Of a stretch of 64,000 bases of DNA, positions 18,187 to 24,100 are shown piece after piece. Origin of the DNA: an uncultured Acidobacteriota bacterium (GTDB taxonomy: Bacteria; Acidobacteriota; UBA6911); contig CAWJKZ010000019.1 in the NCBI GenBank assembly GCA_963843575.1, positions 1 through 64,000 of the forward strand. Reading direction: 5' to 3'. A program made the translations under genes and the position numbers. The notes below the pieces were generated by a model, which was not told the origin of the DNA, ran no database searches, and saw only the letters and a program-made list of their open reading frames with translations. The first letter of the stretch is position 1, and each line of letters opens with the position of its first letter.

Positions 18187-21100
18187 TCACAAGATCCGGC
18201 GCAGGGGTTCGAGCAACTCCGGCTTCATCGGGTCCGGCATCTCCATGGTACGGTAGCCGAGGACCTCGACGTGAACGTTGCCCGATTCGTCGAACACCTG
18301 GGCATCGAAGGCCCCGTCGGGTTTCGGCGTTACCGCGGCGTACAACCGGGCGTCGCCCGACTCTGCCGGGTACAGACTCCTGACCGTGCCGACCCTGTAA
18401 GGCAGGCCGAGCCGGGCGTGGGCGGCCAGTTCCCAGATGCCTGCCGTCTGGAAGCACAGCTCGATCAGTCGCGGCCGCATTTCCACCGGTCTCCCCGCCG
18501 GCTCCTGGTCCGGCGGCAGGTTGGCGGCAAAAAGGCCGATCGTCTCGTCTCCGGATCTCCATGCGGATTCCAGGACCTGATAGGCCGGCCCGTGGAAGTA
18601 CAGCCTGTAAATATCGGAGGCGGCGATCCTGTTGCCGCCCCCCGCGATGTCGGGCACGTCGCGCCGGGCGGTCTCCGCCGGACGCGGGGACAGCCGGACC
18701 CTGCCGGTGAAGTGGGTGGTGACCTCGGGTTCCGTCTGGCCGTGCAGCGTGCGGGAACCGAGGAGCCGGCATTCGGCCACCAGTTCCTCCCCGTCGGCGA
18801 CGAACTCCGCCTGCACGATGACGGTGCGCGGTTGCGACCGGTAGAATTTGAAGGGGGAGTTGAACCGGACGTCCTCGACGCAGCGGACGTGGTACTCGGG
18901 GAAGAGGAGCCGGGCCGCCTGCGCCATGGCTTCTACGCCCATGACGCCGGGGAGGACCGGTGTTTCGTTGATCTGGTGGTGATGCAGGAAGGGCTGCCGG
19001 TTGGGATCGAGGTCGGTTTCGACCGTGAGCCCGCCGTGGACGCCCATCGACACGACTCGTCCGGCGAACAGGCCGCGGGCGGCGGCAAGCCGCGCCAGGG
19101 GGCCACCGCTCGCCGTTTCGAGGCCGCCCGACAGGTCGAATTCCTCCATCATCATGCCCAGGCGTTGTGCGACGACGATCTCGCCGCGCGTGGCGCCGGC
19201 CGTCAGTTCGCGACGGACGGTGGGGATGCCCGCCTCGGGGGGCAGCATGTCGATGCCCGCCTGCTTCATGATCGTCGGGATGGAGCCTCGGGCCGCCATG
19301 CCGATGCCCGCCCACGCCGTCCAGTCGATCGCGATCCCGCGCGTCTGCGGTCGCGTGGTGCGGAAATTCGAGACGCTCTTGCACATCAGGTCGTTGGCTG
19401 CGCTGTAGTCGGTCTGCCCGACGTTGCCGAAGCGTCCGGCGACGGAGCTGAAGACCACCGCGGCGCCGAGCGGCGTCTCGCCGAGCCCCGACATGAGGTT
19501 GAACCAGCCGTCGCTCTTCACGTCGAAGACGAGGTCGAACTCGGACGGCTTCTTGTCGGGCAGGAGGTGGCTGATCTCCACGCCCGCGGCGTGCATCAAC
19601 ACGTCGATGCGGCCGCTGCTTGCGCCGATCTCCCTCATGATTCCGGTCACACGGGCCGAGTCGAGCAGGTTCACGCTGTGGTAGTGCGCGACGCCGCCGG
19701 CCGATTGCGCCGCCCGAATCGCGGTCAACGCCGCATACGACCTCTCGAGCCCGGCCAGTTCCCTGTCGACCATCGCCGGCGTCGCGCGTTCGCCGCGCGC
19801 CTTCAGGCGCTCGAAGAGATCGCGCTTGAGCCCGTCCTTGTCCGTGGCGAAGCGCTGCAGGTCGAGGTTGGCGGGGTCGGGGGTGGGGGAGAGGTCGAGC
19901 AGGTGAAACGTGCCGCCCGAAGCGCCGGCCAGGTCGGCCGTGATGGCCGAGACGATGCTGCCGGCCGCTCCCGTAATGACGAAGACGGAGTTCTGGCCGA
20001 GGGTCATTCCTGGAGCGCCGTCCGCGGCGGGCCGTTCTTCCAGCCCGATGGTCCAGCGGCGGCCTGCACCGTAGCCGATCTCCACGGCTCCCGGATCGAG
20101 CAGCGTCTCGTCGATCAACATACCCGCGAGGGCCGCGGTCTTGCGGCTAGGTTCGAAATCGACCGCCTTGACCAGCATCCCGGGCTTCTCGCGCTTGAAG
20201 GCCTTGGTGAAGCCCGTCACCGCCCCGCCCATCGGGGCCCCGGCGCCTGCCGCATCGTACCCGTGAAATCCGCCCAGTCGGGTGGCGGAGACCAGAAACG
20301 TCCCACGGCTTCCCATCTGGTCGTAGCAGGCCCGCATCGTCTCGTACAGCAGCTTGACCCGGACACGGGCGGCTTCGCGCCAGCCCCGGATGTCCATCGC
20401 GGAGATGGCGGGTTCCTGGTCGAGCGCCGGGAGCCAGTAGACACCCTGGATGCCGCCTCCTGTCTTCCACGACGCGATCCTTTCGGAGAGAACGTCGGCT
20501 GCGGGCGCGTCCTCGACGAGCAGCACCGTCGCCCCCAGCTTTCCCAGCCGGCCGGCGAGCGCCTTCCCGACGCCCCCCTGGTCGGCGAACACGATCACGC
20601 GGCTGTCGGCGCCGAGCGCCACCCCCGTGCCCTTGGTCAACTCGAGGGCCGGCCGGAGCCGCGGCACCGGGACCCGCCTCGGGATGCTGTTGGCGGCTTC
20701 CATGCTCGCCGCCACGCGAGTTTCGGCTTGCGGGGTTGCGGCTGCAGCCGTCGGGATCGCGGGTTGGGTGGCTTCCGCAGACTTCTTCAAGCCGGGTCTT
20801 CGGTCGTATACGAACTGGATGGTGTGTGCGAGCGTCGGGAAATCCCGGAGCTTGAGATTGTCGTCGCGCGGGATGTCGTAGGTTGCACGGATGGCGGCGA
20901 ACATCTCGGCCTGCTTGACCGTGTCGATGCCGAGATCGGCCTCCAGGTCGAGGTCGAGGTCGAGCATGTCGGGCGGGTAGCCCGGTCTTCTCGGCGATGA
21001 TCTCGAGCACCTTCTGTTTGACCGGATCTTCAACCGGTTCGACCGCGGCGGGAGCTGCCGCCTGAGGCGGGGCCGGCGCCGTTTCGACGGGGCCTGGGGC

Positions 21101-24100
21101 CGTGGGCCGCAGGTCGGGCCGCCGCGCGTAGACGAACTCGATGGCGTGGGCGAGGGTCGGGAAGTCGCGCAGCTTGAGGTTGTCGTCGCGCGGGATGTCG
21201 TAGGCCGCGCGGATGGCGGCGAACATCTCGGCCTGTTTGACCGTGTCGATGCCGAGGTCGGCCTCCAGGTCGAGGTCGAGGTCCAGCATGTCGGGCGGAT
21301 AGCCGGTCTTCTCGGCGATGATCTGAAGCACCTTGGCCCTCACGGGCTCGTCCTGCGCCGGCCTGGGTTCGGCGGGCGCAGCAGCGGTCGCGGGTGCCGG
21401 CGGCGGGGCAGGAACCGCGGCCGCCTTGAGGTCCGGGCGCCGGTCGTACACGAACTGGATGGCGTGGGCCAGAGTCGGGAAGTCGCGGAGCTTGAGGTTG
21501 TCGTCGCGCGGGATGTCGTAGGCCGCGCGGATGGCGGCGAACATCTCGGCCTGCTTGACCGTGTCGATGCCGAGGTCGGCTTCCAGGTCGAGGTCGAGGT
21601 CGAGCATGTCGGGCGGATAGCCGGTCTTCTCGGCGATGATCTGAAGCACCTTGGCCCTCACGGGCTCGTCCTGCGCCGGCCGGGGTTCGGCGGGCGCGGC
21701 AGCGGTCGCGGGTGCCGGTGGCGGGGCAGGAACCGCGGCCGCCTTGAGGTCCGGGCGCCGGTCGAACACGAACTGGATGGCGTGGGCCAGAGTCGGGAAG
21801 TCGCGCAGCTTGAGGTTGTCGTCGCGCGGGATGTCGTAGGCCGCGCGGATGGCGGCGAACATCTCGGCCTGCTTGACCGTGTCGATGCCGAGGTCGGCTT
21901 CCAGGTCGAGGTCGAGGTCCAGCATGTCGGGCGGATAGCCGGTCTTCTCGGCGATGATCTCGAGCACGCGCGCCCTCACCGCATCCCCAGCGGGCGCGGA
22001 GGCTGTGGTGGCCGGGCTGGCCGGAACCTGCGTCGGCGCGGCGGCGACAGGCTTGTTCAGATCGGGCCGGCGGTCGTAGACGAATTTGACAGCGTGGGCC
22101 AGGGTGGGGAAATCGCGGAGCTTGAGGTTGTCGTCGCGCGGGATGTCGTAGGCCGCGCGGATGGCGGCGAACATCTCGGCCTGCTTGACCGTGTCGATGC
22201 CGAGGTCGGCCTCCAGGTCGAGGTCGAGGTCGAGCATGTCGGGTGGGTATCCTGTCTTTTCGGAGATGATGCGCATGACCTCTGCCTGAATAGGATCCCT
22301 GGCCGGTGCGACTCTTGCGGGCGGTTGCGCGGCGGGTTTCGTGCTTGCGGGGGCCGGTGCCTCGGGGGGCGCGGGGACAACGGGTGCGGCGACGGGGGCC
22401 GTCGCAACCGGGAGCGGTTTCGGGGACGGCAGGACCGCGGCGGGTGCCTCGGTGCGCGCCGCGGGCCCTTGGTCCTTGACGCGCAGGGTCCGCTGGTGCA
22501 CCTCGATCTCGGGTGTGGCGTAGCCCGTGTTGCGCTTCAACCATTCCAGCCAGGCATGCCGGTCCACCAGCCGGTAGTCGTAGCCGAGCGATTCGGGTCG
22601 CCGATGCTGCCCGTCGGGGGGTGGCACCCAGCGGGTCAGGGTCATGCAGATCTGCGAGCCGAAGCCGGCGCCCAGCCGCAGCGCGTAGCCCACCGGGTAG
22701 TGCCCGCCACTGGACAGGTTGAGCCTCCCGAGTTCGGGATCGACTTCCTTGAAGTTGGGGACGGGCGGGACGATCCCGGTTTCGAGGATCTTAACCCCGA
22801 CCACGTCCTCGATGCCGACGGCCATCGGGTGGCCGGTCGCTCCCTTGGTATTGGCCACCACTATGCGGTCGGCGGCTTCCTTGAACACGTGACGGAGGGC
22901 GAACACCTCGGCCGAGGCACTGCCGCCGCGTGCGGGGGTGTAGGTCTCGTGGGAGACGAAGACCGTCTGCGGGGCGATCTCGAATCGATTGATCCCCCAC
23001 TGCGCCTCGACCTCGGCGACCAGTTTTTCCATGACCTGGCAGATGTGGTTTACGTCGAGACGGGTGCCGTGGTAGGCGCTGTTTGCGGCGACCGAGCCGA
23101 GTACTTCGCAGATGGGCTGGATGCCGCGCTCGCGCGCGGACTCCGCACTCTCGACGACCAGCGCCGAGGCGCCCATTCCGATGAGCAACCCGTGGCGGCG
23201 CCGGTCGAACGGAGTGGCAGCTTCCTCCACGACCTCGTCGGTGGCGGCAGCTCCCGAGGCGAGGAACCCCGAACCGAACCAGCCCATCAGGTTGTCGGAG
23301 GTGATGTCGTCGGCCGAGATGATGATCACGCGGCGGCAGCGCCCCGTCTGGATCCAGTCGCTCGCGATACAGACGGCCTGGGTGCCGCTGGCGCAGGCGC
23401 CGTTGGTGGAGGTGTTCGGCCCGCGCGCGCCGATGTACTCCGCGAACTGGGAGTGTCCCATCGAGAGCACGCGGAACAGGAACCGCCGGTCGAACCGGTA
23501 CGGGTGTTGCTGCAGTTCGGCGCGCAACTCCGCGAGCCGGCGGTCGATCTCCCTGACTGAAGCGTCGCCCTCGCCGCGAAGCGGCGCGATCGTGGCGCGC
23601 AGGGCCGCGAGTTCCTCGACGCGCTCGCGCCGGACGCGGTCCCGCCAGAATCCCGAGATGATCTCCTCGAACGAGTCGTAGCCCGGGAAGGCGGAGGTAA
23701 ACAGCACCCCCGTGTCGTCACGCATGTCGTCGGGGAGGCCCCAGCGGTCCGGGAGCTTGGTTCCCTTGGTCGTGGTCTTGTAGCGCATGACGAGCGGGAT
23801 CCCGGCGTCGCGCAGCGCGTCGAGACCGGCCCCGATGGCGAGGCGGGTGACGTGGTCGAGCGCGGCCAGCCGGTCCTCGGGGAAGCCGAAGTCGCGCACC
23901 AGATCGAGGTCGTGCGCCCGGGCCGCGAGCTTGATCACGTCCGAGAGGTTTTCGATCGTCTCAAAGCGCCCCTCCCCGGTTTCGGTCTTGACGAGCCGGG
24001 TGATGTTTTTTTCCAGCATCTCGCGGCGCAACCGCTCCGGGATGGTGGTTATGAACTGGCCCCCGCGCAGGATGCGGCCGACGTTGCCGTCGTCGAACAC

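Follow-up and report, generated by a model that had tools for sequence, protein, structure and literature searches.

To our knowledge, every textbook and annotation rule treats the carrier-protein residue that accepts the 4'-phosphopantetheine (Ppant) arm as an invariant serine. In the PfaA/PfaE synthases of polyunsaturated fatty acids (PUFA), one of the closest described systems, the motif found in acyl carrier protein (ACP) domains carries this serine. Here we describe a PfaA-like synthase whose five tandem ACP domains all have threonine at the corresponding position, encoded in a 64,000-nucleotide stretch of DNA (hereafter, the window) from an uncultured Acidobacteriota bacterium (GTDB lineage UBA6911; assembly GCA_963843575.1, contig CAWJKZ010000019.1, positions 1 to 64,000). 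The same threonine prevails in a large family of homologous synthases with an Sfp-type phosphopantetheinyl transferase (PPTase) of their own, and these comparisons suggest that it is likely to be a genuine site of Ppant attachment.

The best match in the literature is the Type R secondary lipid synthase which, in the passages that introduce it (Shulse & Allen 2011, PLoS One 6:e20146, PMC3098273), consists of one pfaA homologue with the domain order KS-MAT-CLF-ACP(3-6)-KR and of a PPTase gene after it. The same passages of PMC3098273 name Type R clusters in Koribacter, Solibacter, Elusimicrobium and Roseiflexus and give their product as unknown. The window cluster fits this description, by which it was assigned, rather than by the sequences of the named strains: a ketosynthase (KS), an acyltransferase (AT), a second KS-like domain, five ACPs and a ketoreductase (KR) follow in this order, a dehydratase (DH) is present in addition, and a PPTase gene lies downstream on the same strand (17393-18088). 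Apart from the domain order and the PPTase gene that follows, the likeness extends to the taxa that PMC3098273 mentions in these passages, namely Acidobacteria, Elusimicrobia and Chloroflexi, and the relatives that we read include members of the Type R phyla (an Elusimicrobia metagenome-assembled genome (MAG), P0095; Oscillochloris, P0119; a Korobacteraceae MAG, L106). However, the words threonine and serine are both absent from the main text of PMC3098273, so that the Thr site was not described there. Furthermore, the passages on Type R name only the pfaA homologue and the PPTase, whereas an upstream acyl-CoA dehydrogenase (ACAD) gene is conserved here, and the domain that they label CLF shows Cys-His-His in the window. 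Thus, the part of the original prediction that called the system undescribed holds for the Thr site, which we did not find in print, but not for the cluster, a type catalogued in 2011 in those passages.

The PfaA/PfaE PUFA synthases resemble the window synthase in their tandem ACPs of a near-identical pattern (EKTGYP..ML.....EADLGID-x-[IV]K), N-terminal KS-AT, C-terminal KR-DH and dedicated Sfp-type PPTase. The window synthase differs from PfaA by the replacement of Ser with Thr and by an extra Cys-His-His KS between the AT and the ACPs. A search of the genome, which is 88% complete, for PfaD (PfaB and PfaC were not searched for) gave no family match, and the neighbors of the synthase comprise only the ACAD and the PPTase; a canonical Pfa system was rejected on these grounds.

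The synthase gene is located on the minus strand and appears as two overlapping open reading frames (ORFs), 20147-27169 (2340 amino acids, aa) and 18187-21033 (948 aa). In the minus-strand translation, the five tandem ACP domains each carry [16 protein letters not shown] and read [32 protein letters not shown]. By scripted placement, the Thr codon is ACG in all five domains, at exactly the positions that the original prediction had given:

22058-22297, minus strand: ACP1, Thr codon ACG at 22190-22192
21746-21985, minus strand: ACP2, Thr codon ACG at 21878-21880; lacks Ser; structure modelled
21428-21667, minus strand: ACP3, Thr codon ACG at 21560-21562; lacks Ser
21110-21349, minus strand: ACP4, Thr codon ACG at 21242-21244; lacks Ser
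20788-21028, minus strand: ACP5, Thr codon ACG at 20920-20922; helix I read in the first ORF's frame, what follows it in that of the second

The N-terminus of helix II, the usual Ppant site, is occupied by Thr rather than Ser in each of the five domains. Residues 1591-1990 of the first ORF product contain Ser at positions 1609, 1636, 1718 and 1724 only; these fall in two linker stretches and, in one case, in helix I of ACP1, and the folded ACP2 to ACP5 have none, so that an alternative Ser acceptor within the domain is ruled out for these four. When searched against solved structures with phmmer, the ACP Thr aligns with the Ppant Ser of both PigH ACPs (5y08) and of the Streptomyces coelicolor fatty acid synthase (FAS) ACP (2koo, 2cnr). 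An AlphaFold model of ACP2, built with 15 homologous domains (pLDDT 91.1), has helices at residues 2-15, 36-50 and 66-76, with Thr36 as the first residue of helix II, and its top Foldseek matches among the solved structures are all ACPs (TM 0.84, rmsd 1.4-1.5). The PP-binding family PF00550 matches four stretches with 89.4 bits, above the curated cut-off of 20.8, and the scores of the individual Thr-ACPs (27.6-31.2 bits) are below those of the Ser-type carriers of the same genome (34-72 bits). All 21 other PP-binding domains of this genome, including AcpP and the carriers of nonribosomal peptide and polyketide synthases, have Ser at the site.

The original prediction named Ser in homologues as a refuting outcome, and Thr was found in them instead. 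A word-indexed protein search with the ACP region, which favors proteins that share the motif, produced 6849 matches among 8000 candidates, and a motif pattern that leaves the site free found Thr in 600 of 600 matches from 121 proteins (119 listed database proteins and the two products of the window). Because this search is biased toward the ACP motif, the question was repeated in a manner blind to the ACPs, using the second KS domain as the HMMER query against 1.84 billion representatives; this search yielded 8766 hits at E<=0.001, of which 698 were at E<=1e-30. Among the best 150 representatives, 118 contain ACP domains, 333 in total, and the site is Thr in 317 of these, Ser in 11, and another residue or a gap in 5. 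Direct inspection of related genomes revealed Thr in 12 of 12; seven further relatives with matches were not among the genomes inspected, and one distant single-ACP synthase among the relatives has Ser. A scan of one genome per species confirmed at least 571 stretches with the Thr motif (T-motif). The best 80 of these, on which the analysis of gene neighborhoods is based, come from Acidobacteriota, Gemmatimonadota, Myxococcota, Chloroflexota, Bacteroidota/Rhodothermales, KSB1 and Calditrichota, as well as Spirochaetota (Leptospiraceae), Proteobacteria, Actinomycetota (Acidimicrobiia) and Elusimicrobia.

The substitution patterns around the site point to selection. The Thr codons of the relatives vary synonymously (34 ACG, 10 ACC, 2 ACT), and the five ACP copies of the window, 87-98% identical at the DNA level, show 123 synonymous versus 38 non-synonymous codon differences across the ten pairs. 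Ser can be reached from any Thr codon by a single base change, yet it is rare in this family, the KS domains of which have drifted apart to 35-65% identity, which argues that Thr at this site is favored by selection rather than merely tolerated. The Ser-bearing proteins are P0191 with five Ser sites, P0231 with two, P0252 with one, and P0214 with the series Ser-Thr-Ser; in all of these, the domains are otherwise well formed. In an unrooted FastTree phylogeny of the second KS (83 rows; short coverage or lack of an ACP excluded 68 of the 150 representatives), P0191 and P0252 are tips within strongly supported Thr clades, which implies at least two independent changes. Where Asp, Gly or Pro occupies the site, the entire helix II motif has decayed. 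Only Ser, then, replaces Thr in well-formed domains, as expected if the hydroxyl is the feature that is maintained. As a separate observation, P0166 (residues 1842-1899) and P0177 (residues 1811-1866) each contain, between intact Thr-ACPs, a degenerate ACP-like domain in which neither the Thr nor the helix II motif survives.

The candidate modifying enzyme is encoded immediately downstream of the synthase:

17393-18088, minus strand: Sfp-type 4'-phosphopantetheinyl transferase, 231 aa (Pfam ACPS and 4PPT_N), 98 bases downstream of the synthase stop

The match of this protein to PF01648 (45.1 bits) is above the cut-off and that to PF17837, the N-terminal lobe, is below it (21.1 bits versus 27). 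Sfp of Bacillus subtilis belongs to the same two-lobed family, and its Mg/CoA-binding and catalytic residues, which we take to be D107, E109, E151 and K155, align with those of the window PPTase: in the alignment with 1qr0 and 4mrt, the motifs ISHSG, GCDLE and WSAKESALK are kept, compared with GIDIE and WSMKESFIK in Sfp. Across 38 orthologues, D115, E159 and K163 never vary and E117 hardly does; the original prediction had likewise taken the enzyme to look intact. The clade also conserves motifs of its own (KRRxDWxLGRWTAK, GLRxDTRSV), and the score against the HetI/PfaE equivalog NF042922 is 30.6 bits, far from the cut-off of 370; by this score, the window PPTase belongs to a clade separate from the HetI and PfaE equivalogs. 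The natural and studied acceptors of Sfp are Ser, whereas this clade accompanies Thr-type carriers. The genome encodes two other PPTases, one AcpS-like and a second Sfp-type one beside another gene cluster. At G000:C18:50189-53541 of this genome, the second Sfp-type PPTase is located about 3 kb from a carrier domain with the unusual site context NLSIRSSRL.

The association between this PPTase clade and the synthase, the other check that the original prediction had proposed, is tight. Among 41 related genomes, a strong PPTase orthologue is present in exactly the 20 that have the synthase ACPs, mostly on the same contig and 2-3 kb downstream; the 21 without synthase ACPs give hits of 26-29% identity or none. 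These genomes are kin, and the count is not a statistical test. At a greater phylogenetic depth, the orthologue lies downstream and in the same orientation in 60 of the 80 loci, from about ten phyla; in 13 of the remaining 20, the contig stops within the synthase or shortly after it, so that the fraction among assessable loci is 60 of 67. Moreover, in 30 proteins the synthase continues at its C-terminus into a fused PPTase; 28 of these are of the Thr type, one is of the Ser type (P0191) and one is a fragment lacking ACPs. Such a fusion would make for a self-activating megasynthase. Fungal type I FAS is likewise a megasynthase in which a C-terminal PPTase domain activates its own ACP; the fungal ACP, however, uses Ser, and the window PPTase has a gene to itself. 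The fused PPTases of P0177, a Thr-type protein, and of its Ser-type sister P0191 are 45% identical. The combination of the mixed protein P0214 with the Ser-only P0191, which has a fused PPTase of the same clade, suggests that the cognate PPTase probably accepts both residues, and it weakens the proposal in the original prediction that the system is orthogonal to Ser-ACP metabolism.

Two details of gene arrangement can be added. The fused members include P0162, P0244, P0268, P0191 and P0023. In many Acidobacteriaceae (loci L055-L097), about 5.5 kb separate the synthase from the downstream PPTase, and other genes occupy this interval (about 13.2-19.6 kb in locus coordinates); for Koribacter, PMC3098273 mentions an acetyl-CoA carboxylase gene at this place.

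A structural model of the PPTase with CoA, Mg and the ACP reached a score of 0.74, compared with 0.32 for the best of three controls; the runs agreed in at least 93% of the contacts, with a partner pLDDT of at least 82. The mark passed by this model is reached by 58 of 80 solved complexes and by 2 of 110 mismatched pairs, and is only a rough guide here, with own alignments and riding ligands. In the model, T36 of the ACP contacts the catalytic E159 of the PPTase and L169; in likeness to the Sfp-carrier complex, the modelled ACP docks through helix II and has its acceptor residue at the catalytic Glu.

The synthase gene as assembled contains a single disruption, which the original prediction had overlooked:

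20981-20983, strand not assigned: frameshift; a C run (plus strand) with one extra base relative to the other ACP copies and to relatives, from the sequence and the codon spacing

The extra base is revealed by the spacings between the Thr codons, which are 312, 318, 318 and 322 bases, the last instead of 318 or 321, and this one-base insertion in ACP5 is the reason why the synthase reads as two ORFs. A tblastn search with the protein of an intact relative detected exactly one frame switch across the gene. This assembly also breaks rpoC, which falls into three frames, and rpoB, which falls into at least five pieces (G000:C24:252860-261310); a genome of the same genus (G001) has at least eight frame switches in its own synthase copy and two other relatives have none; and relatives possess intact ORFs of 2800-2950 aa. 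Sequencing runs shared at most 0.15 of the words, and the contigs from four of these runs come from related organisms only; some of them lack one base at 20981/20984, which is no firm guide to this strain. Given that rpoB and rpoC are frame-broken as well, the extra C is probably an indel error of the assembly, and we rejected the pseudogene interpretation, which the single switch had seemed to favor, for the same reason and in view of the at least eight switches in G001. The original claim that the cluster is not decaying missed the frameshift in ACP5, for which an assembly error is the most likely cause. Indel errors are frequent enough in this assembly that apparent frameshifts of this genome should not be taken as pseudogenes.

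The best explanation for these observations is that the region encodes the tandem carriers of a Type R, PfaA-like iterative lipid or polyketide synthase, flanked by an ACAD and an Sfp-type PPTase. We consider it likely that the carriers bear genuine Thr-linked Ppant. The Thr itself, its equivalence in structure to the Ppant Ser, its deep conservation by selection and the genomic linkage with the PPTase are direct results, from which the attachment and the specificity of the enzyme are inferred. Under this interpretation, the co-encoded PPTase, fused in many relatives, would bind helix II of each ACP in the usual manner, its catalytic glutamate (E159) would activate the Thr hydroxyl, and Ppant would be moved from CoA to yield O-phosphopantetheinyl-threonine, the thiol arm of which would carry malonyl and acyl intermediates as in PfaA-type synthases. 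As a departure from the carrier-protein rule, the Thr acceptor is conserved, selected and apparently not described in print, and its coupling to the cognate PPTase is tight. Several considerations weigh against this interpretation. In Escherichia coli ACP, the same substitution at the same structural position, S36T, is a null allele that AcpS cannot modify, according to the relevant passage of PMC3340395, and it is also employed as a null in PMC13343975, in the part that concerns it, whereas here Thr is the conserved wild type. No interpretable active-site difference between the PPTase clade and Sfp was found in the alignments; the complex model is blind to the distinction between Thr and Ser, and its pass may reflect memory of the solved Sfp-PCP and AcpS-ACP complexes; 7 of the 67 assessable loci have no PPTase in the flank or only a weak split hit (L112); the synthase gene is frame-broken in ACP5 in the assembly as given; and the literature search, which left most subscription journals outside, found no description of a Thr Ppant site or of the Type R product. 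Three works considered in this connection (PMC8602292, PMC8436480 and bioRxiv 10.1101/2025.01.28.635281) proved irrelevant to the Thr site.

The E. coli result would fit Thr-ACPs that are never modified and serve in scaffolding or docking, with the synthase using a Ser-ACP in trans, for example AcpP, or CoA-bound intermediates, and the PPTase serving another carrier; the loss of modification upon the Ser to Thr change (PMC3340395, the same passage), the normal AcpP with Ser in this genome, and the conserved ACAD-family partner, a family that usually acts on CoA thioesters, all speak for this possibility. We nevertheless regard it as improbable: purifying selection maintains the complete helix II recognition motif in three to eight tandem copies, intact domains exchange Thr for Ser only, the PPTase is fused in 30 proteins and syntenic in the great majority of assessable loci, and the model seats Thr at the catalytic Glu. 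A carrier supplied from nearby was rejected separately. When three discrete carriers of the genome and the T-ACP were compared by phmmer with all ORFs of 60-400 aa in the 80 loci, no discrete carrier gene was found within 10 kb in any of them, the only hits being pieces of frame-broken synthases in 6 loci, and this absence, too, argues against unmodified carriers. The chances that Thr is modified or used without ordinary Ppant, by direct oxoester acylation or with another CoA-derived prosthetic group, seem to us slimmer still. Thr is a poorer nucleophile than Ser, and the ACPs of citrate lyase and malonate decarboxylase carry different CoA-derived arms, but the partner enzyme here has the fold signature and catalytic residues of the Sfp type, the KS, AT, KR and DH are of ordinary thioester-handling kinds, and there are Ser-type family members with the same PPTase clade. 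Finally, the error-prone assembly, with rpoB and rpoC frame-broken, and the frameshift in ACP5 might suggest that Thr arose by sequencing error, or as a private, inactivating lesion that duplication then spread within a decaying gene. The probability of this is negligible: hundreds of genomes, drawn from many phyla and from independent assemblies, have Thr as the rule, relatives have intact ORFs, the copies differ mostly at synonymous sites, and the assembly errors seen are indels rather than substitutions. The original prediction had allowed for just such a private lesion, and the retention of Thr by homologues refutes it.

Having weighed these alternatives, we return to Thr-linked Ppant and to the question of why Thr would be selected. 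Housekeeping AcpS-type enzymes probably do not accept Thr. One answer, which we offer tentatively and would not put at even odds, is that O-phosphopantetheinyl-threonine is real and widespread and that Thr is selected for insulation, in that AcpS-type transferases, and perhaps Ppant hydrolases, would not see the Thr carriers, or in that beta-elimination would affect them less; if only the co-encoded or fused PPTase charges these carriers, the two would form a one-way-orthogonal pair in hundreds of species from about ten phyla. Strict orthogonality to Ser-ACP metabolism is doubtful, being unsupported from the side of the PPTase, although it could hold from the side of the housekeeping enzymes. 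If Thr is indeed the acceptor, this would be the first natural exception to the Ser rule, and it would occur in a large, ancient family, found in many phyla of soil and sludge and equipped with a dedicated PPTase that is often fused; a universal post-translational modification would gain a new residue type. Comparison of Thr-type and Ser-type members that have near-identical enzymes would offer a direct test of the acceptor specificity of PPTases, a ready-made pair of carrier and PPTase would be at hand for labelling or for insulation of pathways, and annotation pipelines that call Thr carriers inactive could be corrected. The Thr site also provides a handle on the Type R synthase, the product of which is still unknown fifteen years after the class was catalogued.

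The remaining features of the synthase are as follows:

18187-27169, minus strand: Type R PfaA-like synthase gene (translations, Pfam, NCBIfam, tblastn with an intact relative)
25754-27151, minus strand: first ketosynthase domain, residues 7-472 (Pfam ketoacyl-synt, Ketoacyl-synt_C and KAsynt_C_assoc)
24488-25375, minus strand: acyltransferase domain, residues 599-894 (Pfam Acyl_transf_1, 1.4e-39)
22415-24172, minus strand: second ketosynthase-like domain, residues about 1000-1585 (second ketoacyl-synt stretch in Pfam)
19309-19983, minus strand: ketoreductase domain, residues 351-575 of the second ORF product (Pfam KR, 4.4e-20)
18247-19062, minus strand: dehydratase of the polyketide synthase type (double hot-dog), residues 658-929 of the second ORF product (Pfam PKS_DH_N and PS-DH)

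Pfam matches on the two ORF products (ketoacyl-synt, Acyl_transf_1, PP-binding, KR, PS-DH) give the order KS-AT-KS-5 ACP-KR-DH, and the same scan of the synthase detected neither an enoyl reductase nor a thioesterase domain. The closest NCBIfam family is PfaA, TIGR02813, against which the two ORF products score 839.7 and 196.2 bits, under the cut-off of 1010.1, which read-through of the frameshift-split synthase might approach. The translation of the second KS-like domain, the CLF of Shulse & Allen, contains NGACASG, SHETYT and TGHPM. We take these to be the Cys, His and His motifs of ketosynthases, and with all three present the domain looks active, so that the synthase seems to contain two active ketosynthases.

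Directly upstream of the synthase lies the ACAD gene:

27295-29121, minus strand: acyl-CoA dehydrogenase-family gene, 608 aa (Pfam Acyl-CoA_dh N, M and C)

The closest NCBIfam and Protein Data Bank matches of its product are generic ACADs, below the family cut-offs. An orthologue is located directly upstream and on the same strand in 65 of the 80 loci, with E values from 1e-190 to 1e-289; by this measure, the ACAD gene is the best conserved partner of the synthase cluster, conserved more than the synthase itself. The enzyme may supply the missing enoyl reduction or a desaturation step. The genes downstream of the PPTase, which encode an EAL response regulator, a radical SAM protein, a HEAT-repeat protein and a penicillin amidase, occur beside the synthase in at most 2 of the 80 loci (0-2), and we rejected them as members of the cluster. 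The CofH/MqnC-like radical SAM and HEAT-repeat genes occupy 13211-15797 on the minus strand, downstream of the EAL response regulator. Elsewhere in the window, a 730-aa ORF (30744-32936, minus strand) spreads a match to the 277-position GatB_N profile over residues 85-542, which points to a large insertion, an ORF called too long or a further artefact of the assembly.

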